Below, one piece after another: positions 1,720-42,066 of a stretch of 64,000 bases of DNA. The position numbers were made by a program, and so were the translations under genes. Below the pieces are notes generated by a model. That model had not been told where the DNA came from and made no database searches. It worked only from the letters and a program-made list of their open reading frames with translations. The stretch is taken from assembly GCF_002087085.1 (NCBI RefSeq), contig NZ_MWQY01000012.1, forward strand, positions 62,001 to 126,000, given 5' to 3'. How positions within the stretch are numbered: the first letter of the stretch is position 1; the number at the start of each line of letters is the position of its first letter.

Positions 1720-1882
1720 GCGGAGTTTTATTGCCGAGGCGCTGAGGGTGCGGAGAGGAAACTACTGGGGCTATTTAGTAGTTCTCTCGGAATAAATTCA
1801 GGTATATTTGAAATCAGGAAATGATTCTTCGGGTTGTATAAGGAATGAACAATTCGAGGAGTTTTAGGTGGGAGATCCGGCA

Positions 1883-2200
1883 ATGACCATTGGTCCTGAA
1901 GAACTGCAGAAAATCGGCGATTATGTGCGGCTGCATCTGGCTGAATGGATGGGGAACGTCCGCAGCGAACGGGACACTGGCCTTATGGAACGGTCGATCA
2001 GGATCGAAGAGGAACTGAAAGCCCAGCGACAGATCATGGAAACCCGCTTTGAGGCCATGGACAGGCGTTTTGAATCCATGGACGCTCGTTTTGAAGCCAT
2101 ACAGAAGCAGATGGACGTACGCTTCACCAGCATGCAGTGGATGATGGGGTTGGGCTTTACCCTGACGGCGGCCCTTATGGGGGTGTTCAACTTTTTCTGA
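1883..2200 (+). CDS. Small coiled-coil protein with heptad repeats and C-terminal membrane anchor (Bdr/DUF1640-like)
   Basis: Tandem MDxRFE(A/S) heptads (21-bp repeats at 2036, 2057, 2078) followed by a hydrophobic tail WMMGLGFTLTAALMGVF. GGGAG RBS upstream of ATG 1883. Confidence 0.7.
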   Translation: MTIGPEELQKIGDYVRLHLAEWMGNVRSERDTGLMERSIRIEEELKAQRQIMETRFEAMDRRFESMDARFEAIQKQMDVRFTSMQWMMGLGFTLTAALMGVFNFF

Positions 2201-2207
2201 CGTGGTG

Positions 2208-2238
2208 TTGGAACAAAGATGGGGATGATGGGAAGGAT
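2208..2238 (+). repeat. Family A dispersed repeat (TTGGAACAAAGAT-GGGGATGAT-GGGAAGGAT)
   Basis: 31-bp motif with GAT at an exact 9-bp period; recurs 9 times in the window. Confidence 0.85.
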
Positions 2239-2255
2239 AGAGAAGAATTCTTTTT

Positions 2256-2295
2256 CCACAGAGGCTCCGAGGGCTCGGAGAGGAGAACCACAGAG
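2256..2295 (+). repeat. Family B dispersed repeat (CCACAGAG-GCTCCGAG-GGCTCGGAG...CCACAGAG)
   Basis: GAG-ended units at 8/9-bp spacing. A degenerate copy lies at 1733-1755. Confidence 0.75.
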
Positions 2296-2311
2296 TGGAC
2301 TCTGAAGGGTT

Positions 2312-2342
2312 TTGGAACAAAGATAGACAAGATAGAAAGGAT
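2312..2342 (+). repeat. Family A dispersed repeat
   Basis: TTGGAACAAAGAT-AGACAAGAT-AGAAAGGAT. Confidence 0.85.
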
Positions 2343-2373
2343 CTTCTGGTAAAAGGTTTCGGGTATGCTGGAT

Positions 2374-2585: not shown

Positions 2586-2616
2586 TTGAAACAAAGATAG
2601 AGAGGATGGAAAGGAC
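2586..2616 (+). repeat. Family A dispersed repeat
   Basis: TTGAAACAAAGAT-AGAGAGGAT-GGAAAGGAC. Confidence 0.8.
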
Positions 2617-2647
2617 TCTATACTAACTGTTGTATCCTGTGAAAAAC

Positions 2648-2673
2648 GCTGTGCCCTTTGTGCATCCGTGGCT
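2648..2673 (-). repeat. Family B dispersed repeat (inverted, degenerate)
   Basis: Reverse complement reads AGCCACGGAT-GCACAAAG-GGCACAGC. Confidence 0.55.
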
Positions 2674-2733
2674 AATTCTTCCGATTATGTGAATCTTTGT
2701 TCCATAAAAAATGAAAGGAAAACATAACCATAT

Positions 2734-4521
2734 ATGAAATCACCATTTGGACATATTGGGGCGGTTATTAATCTCTTAGAGCCGCGAGAAAAGCGAAGCC
2801 TGATGTTTGTATTTGCAGGTGCTGTCTTCATGTCGATGATACAGATTATCGGCGTAGGCAGTATTATGCCCTTTATTTCAGTTGCCGCGAACCCGGATAT
2901 TATTCACAACAACGAATACTTGAGCTGGGCTTACAATTTTTTCAGATTTAGTAATGAAACCTCGTTTCTCATTGTCTTGGGAGTTGGTGTCTTAATCTTT
3001 ATGTTGCTGACTAACGTCAGCAAAGCATTTTACCACTATATTAAGGTGCGTTTTACAAATATGCGCCGTCATACACTTGCTCTTAAGCTTATGAAGGGAT
3101 ATCTGAGTCAACGGTATCCGTATTTTCTACAGAGGAACAGTTACGATTTTATTCGAAACATTACTGCTGAAATTGCTCAAATGATCCAGGGGACCTTGAT
3201 TCAGTTCGTGGAACTTATTTCCATGGCTATTCAGGTGTTAATGCTCACGTTGTTTCTGTTTGTCGTAAACCCTGGTGGTACAGCCATAATGTTTGGCGCT
3301 ATCGTATTTGTATATGGGCTTATCTATCTCGGTGTTCGCAAGCTGGTAAAAAGGCTGGGAGTCGAGCGTTTTGAAATGAGCGTAGCCCTGTCAAGGATTG
3401 TGAGCGAAGCCTTCTGGGGGATCAAAGAGGTAAAAATACTTGGTGTAGAAAATGTTTTTTTGAATGAATTTTCTCCTCCCTCCAGAAAACTTGCCTGGAG
3501 TGTTTCAAAGAACGAAGTAATAAGCGATGTTCCCAAGTTTACACTGGAAGCAATTGCATTCTCCGCGATAATGATATTTGTACTGGTTACAATGGTCAAA
3601 TCTGGAGATTTCTCCGATATAGCAGCGACTGTTTCGTTGTATGCATATGCAGGGTACCGATTGATCCCAGCCGTACAGGGATTGTTCAAAGCTCTGACGA
3701 AACTACGCTATGGAGTCGGTACCGCCGATAAAATCCTGAATGAGTTTAATGATATAAAAGAAGGAGAAATTCTTCCAACAGGTTTGATTAAAGAACTGCC
3801 TTTTTCACAGGATTTACGCTTAGATAACCTGGAGTTTACATACCCTGAGGCGGATAAGCCTGTATTACGGCAGATTAACCTGACAATATCCAAAAATACC
3901 CTGGTTGGGTTCGCCGGTAAAACCGGTTCGGGAAAGACGACACTTATAGATATTATTCTCGGGCTGCATAGACCCGGGAAAGGCCGTCTGCTCGTTGATA
4001 ATACAGAAATAAATGAAGATAATCTTCGTAACTGGCAAAAAAATCTGGGTTACGTACCGCAGACAATATACCTGAGCAACGACAGCATAGCCTCGAATAT
4101 TGCGTTTGGAATCCGTCGTAATGAAATTGACATGGAGGCGGTAAAACGCGCGGCTCATATGGCACAGCTTGACGATTTTATTGAGACTGAACTTGCGCAG
4201 GGATATGACACGGAAATAGGTGAGCGGGGCGTTCGCTTAAGCGGCGGTCAGCGGCAGAGGGTTGGAATCGCACGCGCACTGTACCGTAATCCGGATGTGC
4301 TGATCCTTGATGAAGCAACCAGTGCCCTGGATGTGCATACAGAAGAAGCTGTTATGGAGGCTATAGATTTACTGATGGGGACCAAAACAATTATTATGAT
4401 AGCCCATCGACTGAGTACCCTGGAAAAGTGCAATACCATATATTTACTGGATCAAGGTAATATAATCGATGCCGGGACACATGCCGAGCTGATTCAGCGA
4501 AATCCATATTTTTCTAAGTGA
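2734..4521 (+). CDS. ABC transporter permease/ATP-binding fusion, PglK/WlaB/MsbA-like glycan flippase
   Basis: N-terminal TM domain; Walker [47 protein letters not shown]. First gene of the glycan cluster. Confidence 0.88.
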   Translation: MKSPFGHIGAVINLLEPREKRSLMFVFAGAVFMSMIQIIGVGSIMPFISVAANPDIIHNNEYLSWAYNFFRFSNETSFLIVLGVGVLIFMLLTNVSKAFYHYIKVRFTNMRRHTLALKLMKGYLSQRYPYFLQRNSYDFIRNITAEIAQMIQGTLIQFVELISMAIQVLMLTLFLFVVNPGGTAIMFGAIVFVYGLIYLGVRKLVKRLGVERFEMSVALSRIVSEAFWGIKEVKILGVENVFLNEFSPPSRKLAWSVSKNEVISDVPKFTLEAIAFSAIMIFVLVTMVKSGDFSDIAATVSLYAYAGYRLIPAVQGLFKALTKLRYGVGTADKILNEFNDIKEGEILPTGLIKELPFSQDLRLDNLEFTYPEADKPVLRQINLTISKNTLVGFAGKTGSGKTTLIDIILGLHRPGKGRLLVDNTEINEDNLRNWQKNLGYVPQTIYLSNDSIASNIAFGIRRNEIDMEAVKRAAHMAQLDDFIETELAQGYDTEIGERGVRLSGGQRQRVGIARALYRNPDVLILDEATSALDVHTEEAVMEAIDLLMGTKTIIMIAHRLSTLEKCNTIYLLDQGNIIDAGTHAELIQRNPYFSK

Positions 4522-4696
4522 TTATTGCTTAATTGAAGAGTATCACCGTACCAATATTTTCTCTTAGATATAAATGAATAAGACCTATGCGTAATAATTA
4601 TTCTCTATTTAGTGAGATAGATTATTAATTGTCATATAAATTACTAAATCGAACGTTGTTCAAAAGTACTATGCACTACTGAATCCAGGAGGGTTT

Positions 4697-5380
4697 ATGA
4701 AAATATTTTGTCCATCAATTCGACCTCAATATTATGAAGAATTAGCACAATCTGTAAAACCATTTGAAACAGAGTATATCAATGGAAATGGTTTTTCTTC
4801 ATTTGCGGCGCTATGCAACAAAATATTTAGAGAAAATGATCAAAGTTTTTTCATTATTGCTAATGATAAAGCAAGGCCTAATCCAGACAACATCGATAAA
4901 ATGCTAAACTTGCATAAGGATGGATTTGGATTTGTTGCACTATACAGAATGGGTTTTTTCTTGGTAGATAAAATAGTTCTTTCTAAGGTAGGATTGCTAG
5001 ATGAAAGATTTTCTGACGGCGGTTATGAGGATAATGATTATTATATCAGATTAAAAAAAAATAATATAGGTTCCTATATAAATGAGGAAATAAATTATTT
5101 ATTGAATGTAACAACTTTATGGAAACATAAAAAAAGTGCCGAGTTCTTTAGTCGCAAGTATAAAATTGATCATCGTAATAAAAAAATAATTGTAAAAATA
5201 TCTGATGAAGAAAAAAATACAGTTGAATGTTTTGATCGAGGAAAATTAAAAAATTGGGAAGAAAGTTTTCTTTGTACAATTCCACTAGTTACTTATAAAG
5301 CGCATTTTGAGGTAGTTTTAAAAGAATATGATATAGTTAATGAAAGAAAAATAAAAAAAGTATTTAGTTGGTGGAAATAA
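4697..5380 (+). CDS. Putative GT-A fold (GT2-like) glycosyltransferase
   Basis: VGLLDERFSDGGYEDNDY resembles the GT2 C-terminal motif; GGAGG RBS; very AT-rich. Confidence 0.6.
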   Translation: MKIFCPSIRPQYYEELAQSVKPFETEYINGNGFSSFAALCNKIFRENDQSFFIIANDKARPNPDNIDKMLNLHKDGFGFVALYRMGFFLVDKIVLSKVGLLDERFSDGGYEDNDYYIRLKKNNIGSYINEEINYLLNVTTLWKHKKSAEFFSRKYKIDHRNKKIIVKISDEEKNTVECFDRGKLKNWEESFLCTIPLVTYKAHFEVVLKEYDIVNERKIKKVFSWWK

Positions 5381-6305
5381 ATTACACTATAAATAAGGTT
5401 CCATAAAAAATAAATACTCTTAGAATAGTTAGTTTGTTAGGATTTCTCTTGATAAAGTGCACAAAATGTGTACAGAAATAGTATTCATCTGACAGTTGTC
5501 GCTAAATAAATATCTCTATGCTACTGAAATTGGTGTTTTTTTCTCCGATCCAGTCCAAGAACGTTCGCAGTTTAGATAACTAAAATAAGCTAACATTTCC
5601 TCTGATTGGGTTAAGCAACCAAACCAAACCAATCCTTAAAGAGAGTTAACAGTGCCAAAGATTACTACAATCTTCTATCTCAGTTCATAGGAGACTCTGC
5701 CCCTCCTTTTGAGATGCTGAAATGGATAATAGTAGAGTATCTGATGCTGTTCAAAGTAAAAATGCTCAGTATATATCGGGTCTGAATCTAAAAATGATGA
5801 CTTCAGTGTATGAAATTTTAAATAGAAAATTCCCGAAAATGATTATAGAATAGAAATATCCGAAGGGCGTGATTGCGAAATAAGTCAGGCTCAACGGAGC
5901 AATCAGAAGGTGAAGAACCGCCTGAATCTTTCTAACGACGGCGCTGGATTGCAAGAATGTCGGGTTTGAAGAAATCGGGAACCGGATCTACCGAATTTTC
6001 TTCCGAGAAAACTTGCTAAGGTGTGCAGATATGAAAGAGCTGATGGTCTACAATATCGTAACCTATAAGGAAGCGCTATAATTGTAAGGGATGTGCTTGG
6101 TTAATAGTCCGTGATGTCTTTGTTTGTACAAGAATTGTTATTCGCTTTACCGTAGTATGTATTTGTCATCAATTTCAAATAGAAAAGAAACTTCAATTAA
6201 CAGATAAACTGGGGATCTGAGTATTACAGGTTATTTTAGTCCTCTTTTATTGAATTGTAGATTATTTCTGAATTTTATTTTGGAAAACCGAAAAGGAAAC
6301 TTCAA

Positions 6306-7499
6306 TTGAAAATATTATTTGTTGCTATGACTAATAGTATTCATACGGCACGTTGGATTGAACAACTAAGAGGAACATCACTTTGTGTGCATGTTTTTCC
6401 TTCAATAAATACAGATAGAATACACCCATTACTAAAAAGGAAAAATGTTATTTTTCATATTCCTTGGCAGATTAAATATCGTAAAAATAATTTATTTAGA
6501 AAATTATTTTTACGGATATATTATCATTTTTATGGAAAAACAAATCGATTTTATGTCGAAGATCAATTAAGAAAAGTAATACTAAAAATTAAACCGGATA
6601 TCATCCACAGTCTTGAAACACAACATAGTGGGTATCTTGTAAATGCTGTAAAATCTAATTGGTATGGTCATTTTAGGTTTCCTAAATGGATCCATACGAA
6701 TTGGGGAAGTGATATATATCTTTTCGGAAGACTCACTGATCACGTACAATCTATACGCCATGTATTAGCTAATTGCGATTATTATTCATCTGAAAGTTAC
6801 CGAGATAATACTCTCGCGAGACAGTACGGATTTAGTGGACATGTTTTTGCTCCTTTTCCTAATACAGGAGGATTCCATCTATATAATTTGCTAGAGTGCA
6901 GATCCAGGGTAAAAACTAGTGAAAGAAAGGAAATAATGGTGAAAGGGTATCAGGGGTGGGCTGGACGAGCGCTGTTCGCATTAGCCGCACTAAAGATGAT
7001 ATCTGAGCACCTAAGTGGATACACTATAAATATTTTTAGTAATCCTGATGGATATGATATAAAAATCGCGGCTGAATTATTTGAACATGATACTGGAATT
7101 AAGGTTAATGTGTTACCTTATATTAATAATTATAATGAAATGTTAAGTCTCTATTCGCGGGCAAGAATATATATAGGGTTAAGCATTAGCGATGCAATTA
7201 GTACTTCTTTATTAGAATCAATGGTAATGGGAACCTTTCCAATACAGTCTGATACATCTACTGCAAACGAATGGATAAATAATGGTGTAACAGGTTTCAT
7301 CGTTCCCCCCGAAGATTTAATTAAGATATCAAATAAAGTTAGAGTAGCTATATTTAACGACTCGTTAGTAGATAACGCTGCAGAAAAAAATTTAGTAATT
7401 GCAAAAAATCGTTTAAACTATGACCTTGTTCGAAGAAAAACATTGGGAATTTATGATAAAATAAAAGCAGATATTGGAAAGGAAAGCTATGATGTTTAA
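6306..7499 (+). CDS. Glycosyltransferase family 4 (GT-B)
   Basis: MKILFVA...HTARW, KPDIIHS, WGSDI, DAISTSLLESMVMG (EX7E-like), INNGVTGFIVPP. Confidence 0.85.
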   Translation: MKILFVAMTNSIHTARWIEQLRGTSLCVHVFPSINTDRIHPLLKRKNVIFHIPWQIKYRKNNLFRKLFLRIYYHFYGKTNRFYVEDQLRKVILKIKPDIIHSLETQHSGYLVNAVKSNWYGHFRFPKWIHTNWGSDIYLFGRLTDHVQSIRHVLANCDYYSSESYRDNTLARQYGFSGHVFAPFPNTGGFHLYNLLECRSRVKTSERKEIMVKGYQGWAGRALFALAALKMISEHLSGYTINIFSNPDGYDIKIAAELFEHDTGIKVNVLPYINNYNEMLSLYSRARIYIGLSISDAISTSLLESMVMGTFPIQSDTSTANEWINNGVTGFIVPPEDLIKISNKVRVAIFNDSLVDNAAEKNLVIAKNRLNYDLVRRKTLGIYDKIKADIGKESYDV

Positions 7500-8499
7500 T
7501 CAAAATACTTTAATGATAACCGGTGGAACCGGTTCTTTTGGAAATGCTGTTTTAAAGCGTTTCTTGGATTCAAATATTAAAGAAATTCGTATTCTCTCTC
7601 GCGATGAAAAAAAACAGGATGATATGCGAAAGAAGTACGACAATGACAAGTTAAGGTTTTATATTGGAGATGTAAGAGATTATAATTCAATCAAAGATGC
7701 ATTTATTGGTGTGGATTATGTTTTTCATGCTGCAGCGTTAAAACAGGTTCCCTCCTGCGAGTTTTTTCCAATCGAAGCGGTGAAAACAAATATCATTGGA
7801 AGTGACAATGTTATTACTGCGTGTATGGCCGCGGGGGTAAAACGTGCGGTGTTTTTAAGTACAGACAAGGCGGCATATCCTATCAATGCGATGGGTATGA
7901 GTAAGGCATTGATGGAAAAGAATGTAATTGCACGAAGTCGAAGTATTGATCCTAAAAATGGCCCGATATTATGCATTACCCGATATGGAAATGTTATGGC
8001 GTCCCGTGGTTCGGTTATACCATTGTTTTCTAAACAGATAGAGAATAAAAAACCTGTTACCATAACAGATCCTTCAATGACCAGGTTTTTAATGTCCCTG
8101 GATGATGCTGTTGATCTGGTATTATATGCATACAAACATGGAAAATCCGGAGATTTGTTTGTACAGAAAGCCCCCGCGTGTACTATAAATGATCTTGCTG
8201 ATGCGATAATGGCATATAAAGATATTACTGTAGAAAAAAATATTATTGGAACCAGACATGGAGAGAAGGTGTTTGAAACGCTGGTGACAAAAGAAGAAAT
8301 GGTAAGGTCTGTTGATAAAGGAGATTATTTCCGAATACTCCCTGATAATCGAGATCTGAATTATTCTCAATATTTTTCCGAAGGTGATTCAAGTGTACAG
8401 CAAATACAGGAATACACCTCGCATAACACTCACCGCTTGGACGTTCAAGGTGTGCTGAAATTGTTAAAAAAACTTGGAAACTTAGAGGAACAGGCATAG
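7489..8499 (+). CDS. fnlA: UDP-GlcNAc 4,6-dehydratase/5-epimerase (FnlA/WbjB/CapE family)
   Basis: ITGGTGSFG, SRDEKKQDDMR, HAAALKQVPSCEFFP, LSTDKAAYPINAMGMSKA, RYGNVMASRGSVIP. Confidence 0.9.
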   Translation: MMFNQNTLMITGGTGSFGNAVLKRFLDSNIKEIRILSRDEKKQDDMRKKYDNDKLRFYIGDVRDYNSIKDAFIGVDYVFHAAALKQVPSCEFFPIEAVKTNIIGSDNVITACMAAGVKRAVFLSTDKAAYPINAMGMSKALMEKNVIARSRSIDPKNGPILCITRYGNVMASRGSVIPLFSKQIENKKPVTITDPSMTRFLMSLDDAVDLVLYAYKHGKSGDLFVQKAPACTINDLADAIMAYKDITVEKNIIGTRHGEKVFETLVTKEEMVRSVDKGDYFRILPDNRDLNYSQYFSEGDSSVQQIQEYTSHNTHRLDVQGVLKLLKKLGNLEEQA

Positions 8500-10486: not shown

Positions 10487-10562
10487 ATTTCGGTCAATGA
10501 TCAAGCTTCCAGACAGGATATATATTCTCCAGTAAACCAGCAAACATAACAGAGGAAGATGA

Positions 10563-11543: not shown

Positions 11544-11547
11544 CTGA

Positions 11548-14115: not shown

Positions 14116-14120
14116 AGAAA

Positions 14121-15203: not shown

Positions 15204-15296
15204 TATATAACCATCTATCTTGTTGGTGTGAAATTATAAATGAAGCATGCATAATGCGTAAATTGTTGTCAATAGACGTTTTAATCGGAGAAGAAC

Positions 15297-23553: not shown

Positions 23554-23758
23554 GGAGATTCACCACAGAGACACGGAGCCCACAGAGATCTTTAGTTTCT
23601 GGAAAAGAAATCTGTTGCCTTTTTCTCTATAAAATCCGGGCCGTTTAGCCCTGTTCTAATATAATTTCTTTCCAAAACTCTCTGTGCACTCTGAGACTCC
23701 GTGGCCGTCTTCCTTCCCCGAACTCTTATCCTTCCCATCTTCCCCATCCTTGTTCCAA
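23550..23758. repeat. Composite inverted repeat element: B(+) 23563-23587, B(-) 23680-23704, A(-) 23728-23758
   Basis: CCACAGAG-ACACGGAG-CCCACAGAG faces the reverse-complement copy CCACGGAG-TCTCAGAG-TGCACAGAG. An inner inverted pair TGGAAAAGAAAT / ATTTCTTTCCA lies between them. The A copy reads TTGGAACAAGGAT-GGGGAAGAT-GGGAAGGAT on the minus strand. Confidence 0.82.
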
Positions 23759-23789: not shown

Positions 23790-24473
23790 ATGATCATCGA
23801 ACTCATCGGGCTTCCAGGCTGCGGTAAATCCCACATTTCCGTCCTGCTTGCAGAACGCCTGCGTAACGCCGGTATACCCGCCCTGGAACCCTCCCGCCGG
23901 ATCGGCCACGGCAGACCATTGCCTCGCCTGGCCGCCAAATCCGCCTGTGCTCTTGCCTTCCTTCTTCTGCACCCCATCAACACTATCCGGACTGTCCTCG
24001 CGGTGGCGCATACCCGACAGACCTCCCTGAATAACCTTGCAAAATCCCTGTTCAACCTCCTCTTCGTCCGCGGCCTGTTTGTACTGTTCCCGCAGAAAAA
24101 CCGGGTTTTGCTCCTTGACCAGGGACTCGTCCAGGGCTGCGCTTCGGTGCATTTTTCCGCTTCCCGACCGCTGGCGCAGGGCTTTTTAGCTTCCCTGCCG
24201 GTGCCGAAACTTGTGCTGCACATCCGGGCCGACCGGGAAACAGTAATCCGGCGTCTCGGTAAACGGGTCACGGGCGCAGGGAGCCGGGTGGAGGAGAATC
24301 CCGCTGAGCAGCTCTCACGCTATGCCGAGGCTCTTGAATCCCTGACAGACAGGCCGCCTCTTGAAGCTGCGCGAATAATCGAGATGAGGAATAATGGGGA
24401 CAGTAAAACGCTTGATAAAGATCTGGATGCTGTGGTTGAGAAGATCGTACAAATGTACAAGTCTTCCAGGTGA
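23790..24473 (+). CDS. P-loop kinase (thymidylate/nucleotide-kinase-like)
   Basis: IIELIGLPGCGKS Walker A, LLLDQG, ETVIRRLGKR lid-like segment. Confidence 0.65.
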   Translation: MIIELIGLPGCGKSHISVLLAERLRNAGIPALEPSRRIGHGRPLPRLAAKSACALAFLLLHPINTIRTVLAVAHTRQTSLNNLAKSLFNLLFVRGLFVLFPQKNRVLLLDQGLVQGCASVHFSASRPLAQGFLASLPVPKLVLHIRADRETVIRRLGKRVTGAGSRVEENPAEQLSRYAEALESLTDRPPLEAARIIEMRNNGDSKTLDKDLDAVVEKIVQMYKSSR

Positions 24474-24484: not shown

Positions 24485-24775
24485 TTATGCCGTCTCTTTC
24501 AGTTTTCCGGAAAGATATTTATGCAGAACCATGGAGACTAATGTCTGATAAGGGATCCCCTCTTCAAGGGCGCGAATCTTCAGGTTCTTGAGATCTCGTT
24601 CGGATATACGGATGTTCATCCGTTTGTCCTTTTTGAGAGTCGCTTGTGCCCGTTGCATAGCGTCGCTTATCTCTTTTTCCCTGTTTTTACGTATCGAAAC
24701 AAACTCATCATTCTTTATTGATTCCATGAGTTCTTTTTCTTCACTATCTAATGGTTCAAAATGCTTATCTTTCAT
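24485..24775 (-). CDS. CopG/BrnA-like antitoxin
   Basis: KKDKRMNIRISERDL...ALEEGIPYQTLVSMVLH ribbon-helix-helix pattern; overlaps the toxin gene. Confidence 0.82.
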   Translation of the reverse strand: MKDKHFEPLDSEEKELMESIKNDEFVSIRKNREKEISDAMQRAQATLKKDKRMNIRISERDLKNLKIRALEEGIPYQTLVSMVLHKYLSGKLKETA

Positions 24776-25061
24776 TTTGTTCCTCTCCTGAAGGTAAATA
24801 TTTTTTCGTGTATATCCTGCTGGGAAATATCGTCTTCAAGAAAATCACGTCTTCTTTTTCATGCTTTACATATGGCACAACATAAATGTAATTGTTGAGG
24901 TTGATCAAATATAATTTTTGATCCGGGTATCTCTCAGAATTTGGATGCTGTAAAATATCGACAACCTTTCCTTCACTTATACATAAAATTATTTCTTCGA
25001 AGGAGATTGAGCGTTTATCTTTCAGCTGTTCATTTTTCTCATCATTCCAATCGAAGGTCAT
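24765..25061 (-). CDS. BrnT-family toxin
   Basis: MTFDWNDEKNEQLK.KR.ISFEEI, HPN..RYP.Q, FLKTIFPSR. Confidence 0.82.
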   Translation of the reverse strand: MTFDWNDEKNEQLKDKRSISFEEIILCISEGKVVDILQHPNSERYPDQKLYLINLNNYIYVVPYVKHEKEDVIFLKTIFPSRIYTKKYLPSGEEQNER

Positions 25062-25095: not shown

Positions 25096-25130
25096 TATGT
25101 CTGTTGTAAAAGTTGCTTATTGGCTTCCGA

Positions 25131-25312
25131 ATGCTTCTTTATCCACCACCTCTTTGTTTCAAAATTCGGAACAAGATATACAGGATCAAAAGGATAAGGA
25201 GATCCACCACCGAGACACCAAGCCCACAGAGTATCCCCTTATTGTTCCTCAGTACCCCCTGCCGCTCTGTAGCCATGCTTTATCCTGCCTATTCTCCCCA
25301 TCTCTGTTCCAT
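25131..25312. repeat. Composite nested inverted element: A(-) 25131-25162, A(+) 25166-25195, B(+) 25207-25231, B(-) 25248-25273, A(-) 25282-25312
   Basis: Direct reading of the A and B motifs on both strands; symmetric A>B> <B<A order. Confidence 0.82.
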
Positions 25313-26372: not shown

Positions 26373-26398
26373 CGTGCGGAATTATTAATATTTACATG

Positions 26399-26426: not shown

Positions 26427-26437
26427 AGGAGGAGCGT

Positions 26438-26683
26438 ATGCCCTTATTACAGGTCAGAGACATTCCGGAAGATTTGTATGAAAAACTATCCCGTGTTGCC
26501 GAGCAGGATAATCGAAGTATTGCTCAGGAAACAATTGTTTTATTGAAGCAGGCACTGGCCTACAAAGAAAGCAGAATCTCCAGACGAAAAAGGATTTTAC
26601 ACGAGATTAGCAGCAATAAAGTCGAGAATGCTGACACCTTTCCGGATCCGGCTGATTTGCTGCGGGAAGATCGAGGCAGATGA
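26438..26683 (+). CDS. FitA-like ribbon-helix-helix antitoxin
   Basis: MPLLQVRDIPEDLYEKL..VAEQDNRSIAQE; ends DLLREDR; stop overlaps the toxin start. Confidence 0.82.
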   Translation: MPLLQVRDIPEDLYEKLSRVAEQDNRSIAQETIVLLKQALAYKESRISRRKRILHEISSNKVENADTFPDPADLLREDRGR

Positions 26684-27075
26684 TTGTTGTATTGGATGCC
26701 AGTGCGGGAATTGAGATAGCATTGGTACGGGAGAAATCCGCAATTTTATCTGCTGTTCTGGAAAAAGCCACGAAGGTTATTACTTCCGATTTGTATAAAG
26801 CAGAAACGGGGAACGTGATCTGGAAATACTATATCGCCGGGCTATTAAAAAGGGATGAAGTATTTCGGAGATTATCATACTGCGACAATTTAATAGATGA
26901 CTATGTAGACATTGCCGAGAATAATGAAGAAGCCTTAATTGAAGGAATACGATTGAATCATTCAATTTATGATCTTCTATATTTCACCCTGGCCAGACGA
27001 AAAGGCGCAATATTGATGACTCTCGACAAAAAGCTTAAAGAGATCGCCATAAACAATGGAATCGAAGTGGTATAA
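26680..27075 (+). CDS. vapC: VapC-family PIN-domain toxin
   Basis: VVLDAS, E.GNVIWK, SIYDLLY, LMTLDKKL: PIN acidic tetrad. Confidence 0.88.
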   Translation: MIVVLDASAGIEIALVREKSAILSAVLEKATKVITSDLYKAETGNVIWKYYIAGLLKRDEVFRRLSYCDNLIDDYVDIAENNEEALIEGIRLNHSIYDLLYFTLARRKGAILMTLDKKLKEIAINNGIEVV

Positions 27076-34005: not shown

Positions 34006-34016
34006 GAAAATTTTCC

Positions 34017-34045
34017 TTGCCGGATCGGGGTTCCTGTGATAGAAT
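34017..34045 (+). promoter_or_regulatory. Sigma-70 promoter of the LacI/ribokinase operon
   Basis: TTGCCG-17 bp-TAGAAT with an extended -10 TG. Confidence 0.7.
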
Positions 34046-34046
34046 C

Positions 34047-34062
34047 ACTAAAACGTTTTAGT
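34047..34062. promoter_or_regulatory. LacI-family operator 1
   Basis: Perfect 16-bp palindrome ACTAAAACGTTTTAGT with central CG, covering the predicted start site. Confidence 0.88.
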
Positions 34063-34095
34063 TGCGGCCGCCGCCGCTTATTATTTTACCGGATT

Positions 34096-34111
34096 ACTAA
34101 AACGTTTTAGT
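34096..34111. promoter_or_regulatory. LacI-family operator 2
   Basis: Identical palindrome ACTAAAACGTTTTAGT, 49 bp downstream of operator 1. Confidence 0.88.
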
Positions 34112-34126
34112 TAAAGTGGAGGATCT

Positions 34127-35131: not shown

Positions 35132-35132
35132 G

Positions 35133-36050
35133 ATGAAGAATATAGTCGTTGTCGGCAGTTTGAACCAGGACATTTCCATCAGCGTCAGGCGTTTGCCTGT
35201 AGAAGGAGAAACGGTTCTAGCCAGGGCTGTACGAAAAGGAATCGGAGGAAAAGGCGCGAACCAGGCCATCGCGGCTTCCAGGCTGGGAGGGGAGGTTTCC
35301 ATGATCGGGTTCGTGGGGAATGACTCTGCGGGAAACGAAATGCTGGAGGCGGTTAAGGGCGGCGGAGTTGACTGTTCAGGAATCGGGATATCCGACCGGG
35401 AAAGGACAGGAAAAGCATATATCACGGTTGACGATGCAGGCAGGAATACTATCGTTGTCGATTCGGGAGCGAATTCCTGCGTAACGCCGGAATTCCTGGA
35501 GACGCTGCTGCACGACCGGATAGACGCCAATACGATCGTGCTTATGCAGATGGAGATCCCCCGCGAGTCGCTGCTGTATGGAATAGAGTATGCGAAAAAA
35601 CGTAACGCTTTTGTCATCCTCAATCCGGCTCCCGCTGCAAAGCTCCCCCGGGAGGTCTATTCGGGCATCGACATACTGACGCCGAACGAAACGGAACTTG
35701 CAATTCTCTCTTCTGCGGCAGGCAAAGATATCGCCGCCATGTCGACGGACCTCGTAAAAAACGGTACGGCCTGTGTCGTGGTTACCCTGGGGGCAGAAGG
35801 TGCCGGGATAATCCTGAACGGTACTGGCGTCCGTCGCGTTCAGGCTCCTTCGGTGAATGCTGTTGATACTACCGGGGCCGGCGACTGCTTCAACGGCGCA
35901 CTTGCTGCAGCCCTGGCACAAGGATATCGCCTTGATGATGCAGTTTTATTCGCGGTTCGTGCCGCATCCTTCAGTGTATCCAGCTTCGGTACAATAACCT
36001 CGTATCCTGATGAATCGCAGATGGAAATGACTTTTGGGGGAAATGCATGA
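35133..36050 (+). CDS. rbsK: Ribokinase (PfkB family)
   Basis: VVGSLNQD, GGKGANQAIAASRLG, NPAPA, TPNETE, DTTGAGDCFNG. Confidence 0.9.
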   Translation: MKNIVVVGSLNQDISISVRRLPVEGETVLARAVRKGIGGKGANQAIAASRLGGEVSMIGFVGNDSAGNEMLEAVKGGGVDCSGIGISDRERTGKAYITVDDAGRNTIVVDSGANSCVTPEFLETLLHDRIDANTIVLMQMEIPRESLLYGIEYAKKRNAFVILNPAPAAKLPREVYSGIDILTPNETELAILSSAAGKDIAAMSTDLVKNGTACVVVTLGAEGAGIILNGTGVRRVQAPSVNAVDTTGAGDCFNGALAAALAQGYRLDDAVLFAVRAASFSVSSFGTITSYPDESQMEMTFGGNA

Positions 36051-37057
36051 TGAACAGACGAAAAATAATAATCGACACCGATCCGGGAATCGACGATGCC
36101 TTTGCAATCATAGCTGCCTTGTCCTGTTCACAGTTTGAAGTTCTCGGCATTACCGTGGTGGGAGGAAACAATCAGCTCAACTCATGCGTGAACAACGCCC
36201 TCGGGCTGGTCTCCCTGATGGACAGCCGATGTCCTGTTCATGCCGGAGCCCCGGTGTCGCTGAATGAGTTGCGCCTTGGAAAGACCGCGGTGGAGCATTC
36301 CACGGAAACCCATGGCAAGGGGGGACTCGGCGGCGTGTCGCTTCCGGGGGACCCTGCCGGGCTTTCGACGGTTCATGCAGCCGATTTCATTGCGGAGACG
36401 GTGCGTTCGAATCCGGGGGAGGTGGAAATCGTCACCCTTGGCCCTCTGACGAATATTGCACTGGCCATGGAAAGGCAGCCGGGTCTGCTGCAGGACGTAA
36501 AGTGCATATGGTCCATGGGCGGAGGAGTGGAAAAAGGAAACAGGACCGTAGTTGCGGAGTTCAATTACTGGGCTGATCCCGAAGCCGCGGCCCGCGTCTT
36601 TGCACAGGGCCAGAGTACCAGCCTCAACATGATAGGTCTTGATGTTACAACGAAAACCTCGTTTTCCATGAATGATCTGTTTTTTCTGAAACTCGAAGGC
36701 GGACGTCTCGGAAAGTTCTTCCACGATATAACGGAACAGTATACCCGTGTGTACTGGGAAAGATTCCGTCTGTGCGGTTGTGTAATACACGATCTGGTAG
36801 CCATGATGATCGCCATTGATCCCTCACTCTGCGGCGAGGGGGACGTCTTCCCCCGGGTTAACGTTCGGATAGAAACGGAAGGTATGTGCCGGGGACAGAC
36901 CCTCGTGGATCTTCATAATCACAGGGATCTCCGGGATCTGCCGAGAAACGCCTCTGTTTACATGGGAATTGACCGGAATCGATACAAATTGAGGTTCTTT
37001 GAAACAGTATTCAAGGATGTATCACAACTCTATGAGAAACATGTCCTGGGGACATAA
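36047..37057 (+). CDS. Nucleoside hydrolase (IU-NH family)
   Basis: DTDPGIDDA, HGKGGLG, GPLTNIA, AEFNYWADPEAA, IHD. Confidence 0.92.
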   Translation: MMNRRKIIIDTDPGIDDAFAIIAALSCSQFEVLGITVVGGNNQLNSCVNNALGLVSLMDSRCPVHAGAPVSLNELRLGKTAVEHSTETHGKGGLGGVSLPGDPAGLSTVHAADFIAETVRSNPGEVEIVTLGPLTNIALAMERQPGLLQDVKCIWSMGGGVEKGNRTVVAEFNYWADPEAAARVFAQGQSTSLNMIGLDVTTKTSFSMNDLFFLKLEGGRLGKFFHDITEQYTRVYWERFRLCGCVIHDLVAMMIAIDPSLCGEGDVFPRVNVRIETEGMCRGQTLVDLHNHRDLRDLPRNASVYMGIDRNRYKLRFFETVFKDVSQLYEKHVLGT

Positions 37058-37076
37058 ATATAAAGGAGAGAATCGT

Positions 37077-37664
37077 ATGAAAAAACTTGGCATGATGTCG
37101 CTGCTGATTATTCCAATCGGAATAGCCATCAATGTGGTTTGTCGGCAGGTAACCCAAATGCTCGCCCTGCCTATTTTCCTGGATACCATAGGCACGGTCC
37201 TGGTAGGTGTATTGACCGGGCCGATAGGGGGCATGATAACCGGACTGCTTACCAATGCCGTACGGGCTGCGACGGTCAACCCCGTTTCGCTGTATTTTGC
37301 TCCCGTCAGCGGTGTTATCGGTCTTATCGCGGGACTGGCGTCGAAGAATAATTTCTACTCAAACTGGATTCAGATTTGTATTGTAGGATTGGTTCTTGCC
37401 CTTGCCGGCGTAGTCACAGCCACGCCCATTGCGGTTATTGCTTTCGGCGGCGCTGATGGCAGCGGAAGTTCCATTGTCACAGGCTTTTTCCTTGCGACAG
37501 GCAAGGGTATCTGGCAATCAGTATTTTCTTCAAAAATAATTACGGAGACAGTTGATAAAATTCTTTCGCTGATTGTCGCCATTGTCATCATAAAGAGCGT
37601 ACCGGAAAGTACGCTGGTAAAATTTCCTCTTGGAATGAATAAAATTCAAATAAAGAAATCATAA
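37077..37664 (+). CDS. ECF transporter substrate-binding S component
   Basis: About 195 aa, highly hydrophobic, IPIGIAIN...LPIFLDTIGT...GP..G..TGLLTN; followed by T and A components. Confidence 0.85.
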   Translation: MKKLGMMSLLIIPIGIAINVVCRQVTQMLALPIFLDTIGTVLVGVLTGPIGGMITGLLTNAVRAATVNPVSLYFAPVSGVIGLIAGLASKNNFYSNWIQICIVGLVLALAGVVTATPIAVIAFGGADGSGSSIVTGFFLATGKGIWQSVFSSKIITETVDKILSLIVAIVIIKSVPESTLVKFPLGMNKIQIKKS

Positions 37665-37675
37665 TTGTAGAGGTT

Positions 37676-37717
37676 CCTCGAGGCGCGCACCTGAAACCAG
37701 GGGTGTACGCCTTGAGG
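37676..37717. other. Intercistronic GC-rich stem-loop
   Basis: CCTCGAGGCG...CGCCTTGAGG outer stem with inner CTG-AAAC-CAG; no U tract. Confidence 0.6.
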
Positions 37718-37756
37718 TTCAGCTGATGTTTTTGCGGAGCCTGGGGAGAATCTGAA

Positions 37757-38506
37757 TTGAATTCGAAAAGCTGTCTATCGAAATTGTATCCCGTATCCAA
37801 GCTGACTGCAGCTCTGGTCATCGCCCTTACCGGGGTCCTGATTCAATGGGATCTTTTTGGCTATGTGGTGGTTCTGCCCCTGCTGTTTATCCTGGCGGCG
37901 GCGGACGGAAAGTTAAAAAGTTTCTTCGTAAAGATGTACGGAATGCTTGTTTTCCTTGCGATAACCATCTTCCTTATAAAAGGATTGTTTCATCCCTCGG
38001 AGGATATTCTGTTCTCGTTCTGGATAATAAAAATCAAGACCGAGGGAGCCAGAGATGCCCTGAGACTGATATCGCGGGTAATCAGCATAGCCGGGGCGCT
38101 GCTGCTGTTTTTCGAGACCACAGACCTTGAGGATTTTATGGTATCTCTCGTCAAGCTCGGTATGCCGTATACCGCTGCGTACATATTCTTATCCACCCTT
38201 CAGATTGTTCCTGATCTGATTAAACGGAGCAAAACCATCATGCAGGCCCAGAGGGCAAGGGGAATCGAGACCGAGGGGAATGTGCTGGTACGGACAAAAG
38301 CCTTTATTCCGGTTATCAGTCCTCTGATAATCTCCTCGATCACTGAAATCGAGGACCGGGTAATAACCCTTGAATCCCGGGCTTTTTCCGTAAAGGGAAA
38401 ACGGATATTTCTTGTGGAACCGAGGGCTGGAGCGGTCGACTATATGATCGGCGGTGTTTTCCTTCTGGCCTTTGTAATCTTTCTATGGATGAGGTATTTC
38501 GCATGA
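37757..38506 (+). CDS. ecfT: ECF transporter transmembrane T component
   Basis: AQRARG and LESRAF Arg motifs; TM helices. Confidence 0.88.
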   Translation: MNSKSCLSKLYPVSKLTAALVIALTGVLIQWDLFGYVVVLPLLFILAAADGKLKSFFVKMYGMLVFLAITIFLIKGLFHPSEDILFSFWIIKIKTEGARDALRLISRVISIAGALLLFFETTDLEDFMVSLVKLGMPYTAAYIFLSTLQIVPDLIKRSKTIMQAQRARGIETEGNVLVRTKAFIPVISPLIISSITEIEDRVITLESRAFSVKGKRIFLVEPRAGAVDYMIGGVFLLAFVIFLWMRYFA

Positions 38507-39363
38507 AGGCCCTGGAGATACGAGATGTGTCGTTCCGGTATCCGATCGGCAAAGATTTTGTTTTGAAGAATATATCCTTCTGTGTTGATCACGGAGAATT
38601 CCTCGCAGTTGTCGGTGCGAACGGTGGGGGAAAAACCACCCTCTGCAATATTCTGCGTGGATTTATTCCGGAGTTTCAGAACGGCTGTGATTTCTCCGGT
38701 GAAGTCCTCATCAACGGAAGAAAGATCTCCGATTACAGCAGCGGAGACCTGGCGCGAGAGGTCGGCTTTGTTTTTCAGAATCCCTTTATTCAGATCAGCG
38801 GAGTAAAGAAGACTGTATTTGAAGAGATCGCCTTCGGTCTCGAGAACCTGGGAACGCCGAAAGAGGAAATGAGAAAAAGCGTAACGGATATTATCGAACT
38901 CCTGAGAATCGGAGATTTGAAGGATAAGCATCCCGCTGAATTGTCAGGAGGACAGCGGCAAAGGGTCGCGCTGGCATCCGTTCTTGTGATGAATCCGGAC
39001 ATCCTCATCATCGATGAACCGACGTCTCAACTGGACCCCCAGGGAACTCAGGAAATCTTTGATATTATCAGAATCATGAAGGAACAGAATAAAACGATTA
39101 TTCTTGTTGAGCACAAGATCGACCTTATCAGCGAATACGCGGACAGGGTAATTCTTCTGAATGATAAAGGCATACTGATCGATGATACGGTGGATGCCGT
39201 ACTCTCGGATAAAATCCTGTTGAACAACGGGGTCCCCATGCCGGAGATCGCGGAAGTTGCCGATATGTATCTTCAGTTAAAAGAAAAGAAAACAGATCGA
39301 CTGCCTGTAAATATGGAACAGGGAATACGGTTCTTTCGGGACAGCATGGGGGAAGTGAGTTAA
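38503..39363 (+). CDS. ecfA: ECF transporter ATPase
   Basis: [33 protein letters not shown]. Confidence 0.88.
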   Translation: MKALEIRDVSFRYPIGKDFVLKNISFCVDHGEFLAVVGANGGGKTTLCNILRGFIPEFQNGCDFSGEVLINGRKISDYSSGDLAREVGFVFQNPFIQISGVKKTVFEEIAFGLENLGTPKEEMRKSVTDIIELLRIGDLKDKHPAELSGGQRQRVALASVLVMNPDILIIDEPTSQLDPQGTQEIFDIIRIMKEQNKTIILVEHKIDLISEYADRVILLNDKGILIDDTVDAVLSDKILLNNGVPMPEIAEVADMYLQLKEKKTDRLPVNMEQGIRFFRDSMGEVS

Positions 39364-40203
39364 ATGGAAGGTATCCTGGCGGAAAATATCACCTTTTCGT
39401 ATCCTGACGGTTACACTGCGGTGGAGGATGTTTCTCTGCATATCAGTGCGGGAGAAAGTGTCGCGATTGTGGGGCAGAACGGGGCCGGTAAGACGACCAT
39501 GGTAAAAATGTTCAATGCCCTTCTGAGACCGGCATCCGGAAGAATCCTGATCGACGGAAAGGATATCGCCGGTATGAGCACAGCGGCGGTATCCAAATTC
39601 GTAGGGTATGTGTTTCAGAATCCGGGGGATCAGATCTTCAACAATACAGTGTACAACGAGATCGCCTACATATTGCGGTATAACAAGTGTGATGCCGAGA
39701 CACTGGACTCTCTTGTCCGGGATGCTGCTGAACTCTGCGGTATATCGGAATACCTGTCCATGAATCCCTATGATCTGCCCTTTTCATTACGCAAGTTTGT
39801 GACCATCGCGGTTGTAATAGCCATGGGATCGAAATATATCATTCTCGACGAACCGACAGCTGGTCAGGACCTTGATGGTCTACACCGTCAGAGGGATATC
39901 ATTCAGGAGCTGGTTGGTCGGGGAAAAACGATTATTACAATTACCCACGATATGCGTTTTGTCATAGAAAATTTCCAGAGGGTAATTGCCATGGCGGACA
40001 AACGTATTGTCGCCGATGCTCCACGGGAAGAACTGTTCTGGGATTTTGACGTACTTGAAAAATGTTCCCTCAAGCAGCCGAGGATTGCCGATCTGGCCCG
40101 GAATCTTGGTTTTCCGGGACGCATAATCAGCAAGAAAGATTTTCTTGATCATGCGACGGAGGGAGAAAAAGCGGAATTCTGCAGTAATCAAAGAACGCAG
40201 TAA
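39364..40203 (+). CDS. ecfA: ECF transporter ATPase (second)
   Basis: GQNGAGKTT, VFQNP..Q, degenerate signature (PYDLPFS), DEPTAGQD, ITHDM. Confidence 0.86.
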   Translation: MEGILAENITFSYPDGYTAVEDVSLHISAGESVAIVGQNGAGKTTMVKMFNALLRPASGRILIDGKDIAGMSTAAVSKFVGYVFQNPGDQIFNNTVYNEIAYILRYNKCDAETLDSLVRDAAELCGISEYLSMNPYDLPFSLRKFVTIAVVIAMGSKYIILDEPTAGQDLDGLHRQRDIIQELVGRGKTIITITHDMRFVIENFQRVIAMADKRIVADAPREELFWDFDVLEKCSLKQPRIADLARNLGFPGRIISKKDFLDHATEGEKAEFCSNQRTQ

Positions 40204-40267
40204 AATATCGCCCGGCCTTCAGGATCTTTGTATATTAGAAGAACAATAATCATTCTGGAGGCTTACT

Positions 40268-40477
40268 ATGAAAAAGAATATGGGTACCCTGGACCGCAGT
40301 ATTCGAACGATTCTTGCCCTGCTTGTGGCCGTTCTCTATTTTACCGGTCAGATCAGCGGGACTGCCGCAATCATCCTGGGAATAATTGCTGTGGTTTTTC
40401 TTCTTACAAGTATTGTTTCTTTTTGTCCCCTGTATACCTTTCTTAAGATCGATACCACTGGAAAAAAGAGGGAATAA
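40268..40477 (+). CDS. DUF2892/YgaP-like small membrane protein
   Basis: MKKNMGTLDRSIR...LLTSIVSFCPLY..LKIDT. Confidence 0.85.
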   Translation: MKKNMGTLDRSIRTILALLVAVLYFTGQISGTAAIILGIIAVVFLLTSIVSFCPLYTFLKIDTTGKKRE

Positions 40478-40529
40478 AGGGATATATTTCTGCACGTACT
40501 ACCACCCTTCAGCTTGAAAGGCGGTTATT

Positions 40530-41615
40530 GTGGATTTTTACAAGAACCTTCCTGCCGGGGTATTTATCGGCTCTGTAAGCGCTCTGGAGCTCTATTACGG
40601 AAAAGAGCTGTCCGAACCGGTGAACCTTGTTCTGAGGGGAAGCCTTACGGATGTTGCCCGGGAATTTGACGATGTCGATTTTCCAGGTATAGAAGGCTGC
40701 GACGCTGTGGCCCGTTATGAAGGGCATACCTGTTTGATCAGCTGTATCGACGAAGATGAACCCTTTCCCAGAATGCCGTTCTCGGTTCAGAATCTCTATT
40801 ACGATCCACGGCGAAGGGTCTTTATGGACCCTCTGAATATTTATTATGACATCCGCCGCAGAGAACCCCGTCTGCTGGACGAGGTATGCTGCGATGAACA
40901 GACCGTAATCGAAGGCGCTCTGCTCTATTCCCGATTCAAATATCCACGAAACAGGTTTTACAGAGGCCTGGACTACAACTGGGAGCATATCTCAGTTTAC
41001 GAACAGCGTTTGCTCTTGTCCCGGATACTTAAGGGTAAATACGCCCATCGGGGGCTGGATATCCTGATGCGCACCGGGTTTATTTCCACCCACTGGCCGG
41101 AACTGGCCCGTATGGATGCCACCGAACATGCCAAGGAGCATCATCCCGAGGGAAACGCCTGGGAACACACCCTGGAGACCTTCCGGTACCGGAAAAACAC
41201 CGACCTTGCTCTCTCCCTCGGACTCCTGCTTCACGACGCCGGTAAACCGGCGGCAAAACGGAACGAAGGAAACACCTTTGACCGCCATGCTCAGATAGGA
41301 ACCGGGATCGCCAGGCGATTTCTGGAACGCCTCGAATTTGAAAGAGACCTGCAGGATGAGGTGGTTTTCCTGGTCCGGGAACACATGCTGCCCGCCTTTA
41401 TTCCCCGGCTTCCCACCTACCGGACCGAACGGAGCATGTCCTCCCCCTGGTTTCCGAAGCTTCTGGAGCTCTTCCGCTGCGACCTCTCCTCCACATTCCG
41501 CGGGCCGGAGAAATACTACGAAGCCTGTACCACCTACCGAAGCTTCCTGAAATACCGGAAGAACCCCTTCAGGACTGCGGAAGGAAAAAAACAGCTGAGA
41601 CTCTACGTTGAATAG
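40530..41615 (+). CDS. HD-domain protein related to tRNA nucleotidyltransferase / poly(A) polymerase, with degenerate head domain
   Basis: WPELA..., HHPEGNAWEHTL, LLLHDAGKP, HAQIG, REHM, CD. Confidence 0.75.
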   Translation: MDFYKNLPAGVFIGSVSALELYYGKELSEPVNLVLRGSLTDVAREFDDVDFPGIEGCDAVARYEGHTCLISCIDEDEPFPRMPFSVQNLYYDPRRRVFMDPLNIYYDIRRREPRLLDEVCCDEQTVIEGALLYSRFKYPRNRFYRGLDYNWEHISVYEQRLLLSRILKGKYAHRGLDILMRTGFISTHWPELARMDATEHAKEHHPEGNAWEHTLETFRYRKNTDLALSLGLLLHDAGKPAAKRNEGNTFDRHAQIGTGIARRFLERLEFERDLQDEVVFLVREHMLPAFIPRLPTYRTERSMSSPWFPKLLELFRCDLSSTFRGPEKYYEACTTYRSFLKYRKNPFRTAEGKKQLRLYVE

Positions 41616-41621
41616 GGGAAT

Positions 41622-42066
41622 TTGGAACAGGTATGGGGAGGATGGGAAAGATACAGTAAGCGCCCATATCCTTATTTCTCGCTGCTACTCCGCGTCTCCC
41701 TTCTGCGTTACTCTGCGGCCTCTGCGTGATCCCTTCTCCCTGTAGTGGATCTCTTTTTCCGAATCGAGAAACATGGACAGTAAGAAAACCATGGAGTCGC
41801 TGAGAACACGGAGAAACACAGAGGAAGTATGGAACAAAGATGGGGAGGATGGCCAGGATGGGTGTAGAAGTAGAAACTGATGATCCTGAACCTTGCGAGT
41901 TACGCACTTAGGTAAATCACAGTCACAACTACTCCGCGTCCCCCTCTGCGCCCTCACCGACCTCTGCGCGGCCTTATTCCTCCGCGTCTCCCTTCTGCGT
42001 CCTCACCGTCCTCTGCGTAGTCCTAATCCTCAGCGTTACTCTGCGTCCTTTGCGGTCTCTGCGGCG
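41622..42066. repeat. Dense mosaic of family A (41622-41652, 41829-41859) and family B (41688-41728 -, 41789-41823 +, 41932-41971 -, 41980-42019 -, 42029-42066 -) repeats
   Basis: Intergenic region between convergent genes. Three near-identical ~41-bp copies beginning CTCCGCGTC...CCTCTGCG. Confidence 0.88.

Follow-up and report, generated by a model that had tools for sequence, protein, structure and literature searches.

The window analysed here, 64,000 nucleotides (nt) of contig NZ_MWQY01000012.1 (positions 62,001 to 126,000 of the forward strand, assembly GCF_002087085.1), is a surface-polysaccharide region of a spirochaete genome (G000; 4.2 Mb, 97% complete) and carries short dispersed repeats, termed arms A, B and B', at four loci. 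Each arm consists of a head and three phased units, GAT units in A and RAG units in B and B'. Arms of the same architecture flank genes of the GxxExxY family (PF13366) in this and other genomes, and the arm type follows the clade of the encoded protein. The arms are very probably the sites of these predicted nucleases. The fuller proposal, that they are cognate sites through which GxxExxY nucleases drive local duplication and gene capture, could equally well hold or fail. Five genomes of the same genus (G001-G005) were used for comparison. No description of these repeats was found in a literature search that covered mainly the main texts of open-access papers.

Repeat arms in the window and the genome

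All 21 copies of A and B listed in the initial annotation were recovered at, or within a few bases of, their reported positions. Both families are real but looser than the consensus sequences written for them, which three of the nine A copies and three of the 12 B copies match exactly. The 9-bp period assigned to B was not upheld, its triplets being spaced 8 and 9 nt apart. A and B had also been called unrelated; they are instead variants of a single arm design, each linked to its own clade within one protein family. Unit periods are 10 or 9 in GAT arms and 8 or 9 in RAG arms, and A is therefore the 9-nt GAT form.

Weight matrices for A and B were trained only on other genomes (loci of G002 and G004) and then scored on the window. 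Eight of the nine A copies scored 23.7 to 46.4 bits, with the copy at 25131(-) weak at 18.3 bits, and an additional A copy absent from the earlier list was found at 2673-2705(-) (26.9 bits). Seven of the 12 B copies scored 22 to 33 bits and 25248(-) was weak at 17.0 bits. The locus-4 copies at 41688, 41932, 41980 and 42029 reached at most 2.4 bits with the B matrix because they belong to the CGCAGAG subfamily, B'. A genome-wide scan, as proposed earlier, gave at a threshold of at least 20 bits 27 matches to A and 15 to B in G000, against 0 and 2 in shuffled sequence, respectively. B' occurred 61 times in the genome against once in shuffled sequence. About one third of the genome's A copies lie within the window. 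A third spacer motif ("C"), with two seeds too few for a matrix, gave 50 matches as a regular expression against 14 in shuffled sequence, too noisy a signal to use.

Intergenic positions, computed with a simple gene caller of our own, accounted for 37 of 44 matches of at least 19 bits, against a genome that is about 92% coding. Orientation was read from 41 arms, after matches below 20 bits and one intragenic match were dropped and three open reading frames (ORFs) made of repeats were ignored. The heads point outward from the gap: 26 face a stop codon, 16 of them at a distance of no more than 30 nt, and 15 face a start codon. Paired arms were compared in a registration with period 10, which covered 40 of 54 pairs. 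Their type-defining positions matched in cis at 0.98-1.0 versus 0.5 in trans, while their linkers matched in cis at only 0.5-0.7.

Nuclease genes associated with the arms

The enzyme of what were thought to be non-autonomous sites, resembling repetitive extragenic palindromes (REPs) and bacterial interspersed mosaic elements (BIMEs), had been predicted to be encoded outside the window, and a search for a nuclease, recombinase or HUH gene family that has the motifs on its flanks and shares their distribution had been suggested. Such a nuclease family exists in GxxExxY, with genes 13 kb upstream of the window and elsewhere, which supports the prediction. REP-associated tyrosine transposases (RAYTs) were not detected: PF01797 gave 0 matches in G000 in a search that was positive in 6 of 14 controls.

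PF13366 had ten matches in G000; the score of 143.9 bits lies above the curated cut-off and places the protein in PDDEXK_3, and three arm-linked genes scored 146.5, 128.4 and 146.8 bits against TIGR04256. The gene at C4:49208-49588 is bracketed by A(+) and A(-); the whole unit, C4:49149-49626, lies 13 kb upstream of the window. The orthologous genes of G002 and G004 are likewise bracketed by A, although the G004 copy is interrupted by an internal stop. A-type arms also flank the related genes found in G001, G005 and G003. A gene of a second clade (GPGLLE), C4:30534-30962, lies among B' hairpin units of 127-131 nt. The nearest match of the arm-linked protein outside these genomes is titled Spirochaetaceae (L056). 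Between a winged helix-turn-helix (wHTH) gene and metF, the gap is an empty 22 nt in G001 and G005 and holds an A-gene-A unit in G000, G002 and G004; G001 and G005 carry an A-flanked gene two genes upstream of the empty gap. No target-site duplication was seen between filled and empty sites, in genomes just about 70% alike. The gap after metF is another variable slot, holding a Uma2-like gene (assigned by eye) in G005 (L046:15450-16030) and the coiled-coil cargo gene described below in G001 (L048:10728-11039), both without arms.

Inverted arms were present at 56 of 73 loci in a first set beyond the genus (5 of 78 dropped for short flanks) and in 0 of 65 shifted windows. Over all sets, 191 GxxExxY loci were fetched, of which 154 were usable and 132 non-redundant; arm pairs occurred at 83 of the 132 and in 1 of 105 shifted windows, with typed arms in 0 of 105. 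On a quick version of a clade tree of the 132 rows, the GxGF.E[KR] clade (73 loci) had 46 GAT, 0 RAG, 6 other and 21 without arms, and the GxGL clade (44 loci) had 1 GAT, 24 RAG and 19 without; arm types were mixed in a third clade. Fourteen held-out loci, chosen later by Pfam score alone, agreed in 12 cases with none crossed (RAG in 10 of 11 GPGLLE, GAT in 2 of 3 GxGF), and several of the GPGLLE loci have arms of exactly the B form of the window. Among 60 genomes of another phylum, GAT arms were found in 8 of 21 with PF13366 versus 2 of 39 without, counts that include kin and are not independent. Because one genome harbours both clades and both types of site, a direct swap experiment is possible.

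The GxxExxY protein is a single domain of 120-140 amino acids (aa). Its structure was predicted as a minimal PD-(D/E)xK domain with a mean local confidence (pLDDT) of 94, and of 43 when predicted from the single sequence. The best Foldseek match was Cas4 SSO0001 (E 3e-4), and restriction-endonuclease-like chains aligned at Z 8.0-8.3 with a root-mean-square deviation of 2.9-3.5 over 95-100 residues; matches at Z of about 8 place the fold alone and do not imply function. No solved relative was found by sequence (best E 0.037). D66, E76 and K78 are invariant in 67 sequences and presumably form the catalytic triad. PF13366 is listed as "unknown" in a PD-(D/E)xK survey (PMC3424549); the present work gives it predicted substrates.

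Other GxxExxY genes of G000, on C40, C36, C67, C69, C72 and C23 (235.9-237.9 kb), have a different upstream hairpin and no A or B arms; several are on tiny contigs, two stand in tandem on C23, and they form branches of their own in the tree. A third-clade gene of G000 with CACRGAA/CACGAA-type arms (L003, C75:152.0-152.7 kb) precedes a probable type I restriction gene, labelled by eye. At L143 (G003:C101:5480-6520), A-type units form long arrays of one orientation on both sides of the GxxExxY gene.

Organisation of the four loci

The arms and genes of the window are as follows.

1728..1757, +: arm B (22.0 bits), 9 nt after an ABC-ATPase stop; left edge of locus 1
1868..2200, +: cargo gene, 110-aa coiled-coil protein
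2208..2344, +: composite spacer A(2208-2240)-B(2253-2282)-A(2312-2344), 46.4, 32.7 and 36.9 bits
2374..2573, +: cargo remnant, DUF2283 gene with a frameshift, flanked by A arms in direct orientation, G+C fraction 0.34
2586..2618, +: arm A (37.8 bits)
2645..2705, -: closing arms B(2645-2674) and A(2673-2705), 24.5 and 26.9 bits; next gene 29 nt on
23560..23589, +: arm B (24.8 bits), 7 nt after a GT2 stop; left edge of locus 2
23678..23758, -: arms B(23678-23707) and A(23726-23758), 31.9 and 41.6 bits; right edge of locus 2
23790..24473, +: AAA_18 kinase-like core gene that separates locus 2 from locus 3, G+C 0.58
24485..25061, -: cargo, BrnT-like toxin (24765-25061) and CopG antitoxin (24485-24775), G+C 0.37
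25130..25312, both strands: locus 3 arms A 25130-25162(-), weak; A 25165-25197(+); B 25204-25233(+); B 25246-25275(-), weak; A 25280-25312(-)
26438..27075, +: VapBC (FitA-like/PIN) pair without arms, outside the system
41622..41654, +: arm A (33.7 bits), 7 nt after an HD-gene stop; left edge of locus 4
41688..41730, -: arm B' (CGCAGAG)
41786..41861, +: arms B(41786-41815) and A(41829-41861), weight-matrix hits
41932..42066, -: tandem B' arms ahead of the thrC stop, copy number differing in close strains

Small accessory genes had been reported beside the arms. This holds for the BrnT pair, the coiled-coil gene and the DUF2283 remnant, all of which are cargo, and fails for the kinase, a conserved core gene found at the same place in G001-G005. 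The coiled-coil protein, labelled "Bdr-like" by the earlier reader, has no Pfam or NCBIfam match; its gene is present in two copies in an array of G002 and elsewhere in G001. The 3' part of the DUF2283 remnant matches PF10049 (E 2e-4) at 21.8 bits, slightly below the cut-off of 23. The spacer 2208..2344 resembles the inter-cassette spacers of G002 (aligned to L034:8756-8878). Across G000, about 6 of 16 credible arm clusters, read by eye, carry accessory genes and most sites are empty.

Two further blocks of the window are variable. The LacI/ribokinase/nucleoside-hydrolase/ECF-transporter block at 34000-40250 is absent from this position in G002, G004 and others and present in close strains. 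The AT-rich glycosyltransferase block at 4500-15300 is strain-specific and did not align to the same-genus regions fetched.

Cargo turnover, breakpoints and duplications

Alignment of orthologous loci, which had been suggested as a check, showed that cargo differs among relatives and that many breakpoints fall at the repeats. Locus 1 measures 1.0 kb in G000 versus 7.9 kb in G002. The G002 array consists of ten modules in the same orientation. Four are MNT/HEPN-type pairs and two are HicBA-type pairs; the others are a PBECR2-DUF2283 pair, the coiled-coil gene, present twice, and one 74-aa ORF. All 11 of its spacers carry arms, and the array is closed by B(-)/A(-). Locus 2 is empty in G000, holds a 2.4-kb array in G004 (MNT-HepT, HicAB, DUF4160/DUF2442) and other cargo in G002. 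Locus 3 has BrnT/CopG in G000 and G004, a PIN/antitoxin pair in G002 and nothing in G001 and G005. Locus 4 is without cargo in G000 and has an AAA-ATPase gene in G004, around which a block of about 150 nt, opened by A(41829-41861), is duplicated.

Close strains were compared on contigs, where joints within repeats can be false. The BrnT pair is missing in three of them, with joints at 24467/25278 and 24547/25247; the right junction lies at the inner arm end, at 25278 in one run and 25247 in two. The locus-2 loop 23593-23728 is replaced in one close strain up to the end of A, and the number of B' copies (41932..42066) varies.

Nine cargo blocks were aligned across both sides of the cargo. Four of them have direct duplications of an arm together with site-specific DNA, matching at 83/94 (a stretch that reaches 14 nt into the start of the kinase gene), 125/141 (from the A head), 87/101 and 129/154 positions. 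A fifth is a duplicated gene block (562/651 matches) and a sixth is weak (80/113). Tandem units of arm plus local DNA without cargo, 35-150 nt long and in up to ten copies, occurred at the seven stretches examined. Those of B' in G000 include ten units of 71-73 nt (C65:82262-82930), four of 73 nt (C3:141360-142060), five of 150 nt (C12:136980-137800) and 25-47 at C8:41340-48620, and could pass for CRISPR or variable-number tandem repeat arrays.

Enrichment of toxin-antitoxin (TA) genes at the repeats had been suggested as a check in the initial annotation. In a census of three genomes, 13 of 59 HicA, MNT, BrnT and PIN genes lay within 1.2 kb of an arm, compared with 1.1-1.4% of the DNA, while the other 46 lay elsewhere; the BrnT gene of the window itself escaped this search. 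Genes near arms made up 5 of 5 HicA, 5 of 17 MNT, 1 of 9 BrnT and 2 of 28 PIN. Hand-picked sites in other phyla, which are anecdotal, mostly show empty arm pairs, and a few enclose Uma2 and DUF5615 genes or AbiU2 and two more. In G342 (L256, L258), of another phylum, GAT arms between rml operon genes enclose Uma2 and DUF5615, and GAT arms also bracket a three-gene AbiU2/Sel1 block.

Proposed mechanism and alternative explanations

If the arms are GxxExxY sites, the GxGFLE[KR] clade would read GAT units and the GPGLLE clade RAG units. The autonomous unit is arm-gene-inverted arm, as at C4:49149-49626, and gene-less arms stand dispersed between genes, heads outward and in many cases just behind a stop codon. 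The nuclease may bind the phased units and nick DNA at or beside the arm; that it cuts there is probable. Repair synthesis from the nick could copy the arm and adjacent DNA in tandem, in the manner proposed for BIME amplification by TnpA-REP (PMC3333891). Such repair could yield both observed products, the tandem arrays of 35-150 nt from arm heads and the direct duplications of 95-160 nt around cargo. The same breaks may let foreign small genes be patched in, and addictive toxin-antitoxin modules would be retained, so that arm-separated cassette arrays accumulate; arrays would collapse by recombination between direct copies. The repeats would then be recombination sites that actively acquire cassettes. 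Whether cutting does drive duplication and capture is, in our estimate, evenly poised.

If true, a third enzyme fold would join HUH (RAYT) and GIY-YIG (Ssn) in working together with a dispersed repeat of its own, and TA and defence genes would have a new way of gathering in arrays outside integrons. Nucleases of 125 aa with different 30-nt specificities could serve as tools. In its broadest form, the system would be an analogue of integrons without a recombinase, in which minimal PD-(D/E)xK nucleases nick their own clade-specific, phased-triplet sites, duplicate them along with adjacent DNA and build strain-specific TA/defence cassette arrays at numerous positions of the chromosome, across bacterial phyla and some archaea; this we consider less likely than not.

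Several observations weigh against this account. As to the association itself, 46 of 132 GxxExxY loci lack a typed arm pair, 2 of 10 arm-bearing genomes in the other-phylum sample gave no PF13366 match, the match of clade and type depends on few clade splits, and the GAT and RAG sets come mostly from different collections. Residue co-variation with the CAC/CGC subtype reached a best p of 3e-4 among 128 tests, with at most four independent pairs. G001 and G005 have an A-flanked gene yet only 5 and 2 pattern matches (controls 1 and 3), and 20 arm matches persist in G004 although its gene has an internal stop. As to the cargo, 3 of 9 blocks are alike on both sides at arm level alone, the left BrnT junction lies away from arms, and most of the TA-family genes (46 of 59) lie away from arms, the 13 near ones being mostly in few arrays. 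VapBC (26438-27075) is absent in close strains though it has no arms; the three sets of close-strain contigs that lack it also have other sequence in place of the epimerase gene's 3' end (26320-27075). Because PD-(D/E)xK enzymes do not become covalently attached to DNA, host functions must rejoin the ends.

Some of these points would be expected if the arms were passive hot spots. The GxxExxY element would spread the arms, host RecA recombination and slippage between repeats would alone cause duplication and cargo turnover, and TA genes would settle in neutral, repeat-filled gaps of a variable polysaccharide region. The variation of VapBC without arms, the 46 TA-family genes elsewhere and the arrays kept by G004 with a broken A-clade gene all fit, as does the position of many arm sites in polysaccharide operons, and Neisseria minimal mobile elements beside dRS3/NIME arrays provide a precedent (PMC1797815). 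However, the duplicated blocks hold site-specific non-repeat DNA and several begin at an arm head, arms of about 30 nt that are 65-85% alike would seem short for RecA, and all five HicA genes adjoin arms. We regard passive hot spots as a rather unlikely explanation.

Alternatively, the nuclease could be an SsnA-like gatekeeper that cuts arm-bearing single-stranded DNA (ssDNA) and restricts or tunes incoming DNA, with arrays as a by-product. The layout resembles that of NTS-ssnA-NTS, where further copies of the site are scattered between genes in the vicinity of surface genes (PMC11893778), and the fold neighbours include the ssDNA nucleases Cas4 and MGME1. Single arms, however, are not palindromes, two window arm pairs folded on both strands as ssDNA no better than shuffles (z -0.06 to -1.06), and cargo is enriched at arms rather than excluded, which leaves this role improbable. 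The spacer 2206-2345 does fold better than shuffles (z -2.8 and -3.5), via small hairpins within B. Ssn itself was rejected as the enzyme, as no arm-flanked small GIY-YIG gene was found. A GIY-YIG ORF of about 84 aa at C42:640-930 of G000 lies inside an insertion in an apparent 23S rRNA, bounded by inverted repeats of about 22 nt and without arms. In G002 and G004, which have arms, GIY-YIG matches are just UvrC-sized and no small match was seen in their searches.

Paired arms might also act in mRNA as a stem, serving as terminator, stabiliser or excised stem akin to an intervening sequence (IVS). Outward heads would let them close a stem round the gap, and the 16 of 41 arms within 30 nt of a stop codon suit such a role. 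Yet mismatches between paired arms have no wobble bias on the sense strand (92 versus 94), many arms are solo or in direct arrays, and Rfam gave 0 matches at gathering score in the window; a role in RNA is quite improbable. We favour arms as DNA sites read by sequence, because triplets are conserved while linkers are free, type positions are identical in cis, wobble bias is absent and folding is weak.

That the arms are degenerate attC sites, served as clusters of attC sites lacking integron integrases (CALINs) by the genome's own integron integrase, is scarcely credible and was rejected: IntI is present in G000 (TIGR02249, 393.7 bits, cut-off 265) and 5 of 5 same-genus genomes, and the arrays line up small-gene cassettes in one orientation, many of them TA modules, but the resident integron has its own unrelated family of palindromic attC sites of about 160 nt on which A and B score at most 6.3 bits, the core RYYYAAC of the attC consensus (RYYYAAC...GTTRRRY) occurs in 0 of 27 A heads, the spacers are direct, purine-rich composites, and G001 and G005 have IntI yet almost no arms. 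The integron of G000 (C34:1-4070) comprises intI (C34:2826-4070) and an upstream array of these sites, copies of which also occur on C75, C46, C58, C41, C9 and C24.

Comparison with known systems

GxxExxY nucleases acting at phased arms would share features with four known kinds of system. With integron arrays and CALINs, the arm loci share co-oriented, TA-rich small-gene cassettes with related spacers that vary between strains. They differ in that the arm spacers are not attC, no intI or attI is adjacent (IntI is on another contig), arm sites are many across the chromosome, and site-specific flanking DNA is duplicated with the cargo. Miniature inverted-repeat transposable elements (MITEs) and MITE-flanked composites similarly have outward terminal repeats around gene-less or gene-bearing interiors (PMC3184786), whereas arm interiors are site-specific rather than a conserved body. 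A short target-site duplication or a matching insertion-sequence transposase was not identified, in genomes about 70% alike.

REP/BIME/REPIN-RAYT systems (PMC3333891, PMC6006769) likewise have oriented repeats that lie between genes and occur in inverted pairs, together with a single enzyme gene bracketed by its own repeats. At particular loci the repeat and its linker form tandem arrays that differ between strains, and capture of neighbouring genes has been proposed for these systems. The arms, by contrast, come with a candidate PD-(D/E)xK enzyme instead of a Y1/HUH gene and with multi-cassette TA arrays, and they are phased triplets without the GTAG/GTGG (or CGTC) tag and short palindrome by which REP units are defined (PMC6006769). 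NTS/SRM-SsnA, with a GIY-YIG ssDNA nuclease, shares the tiny single-domain nuclease flanked by its own site (PMC11893778); site types that co-vary with the enzyme and dispersed copies at surface-structure loci are shared with it and with dRS3/NIME (PMC11893778, PMC1797815). Here the fold is another one, PF13366 instead of GIY-YIG, and an arm alone forms no hairpin. To these the present locus contributes the coexistence of two clades, each with its arm type, in a single genome, TA arrays of several cassettes, and duplications anchored at arms. The feature is akin to REP/BIME-RAYT and NTS-Ssn in its working and is a member of neither.

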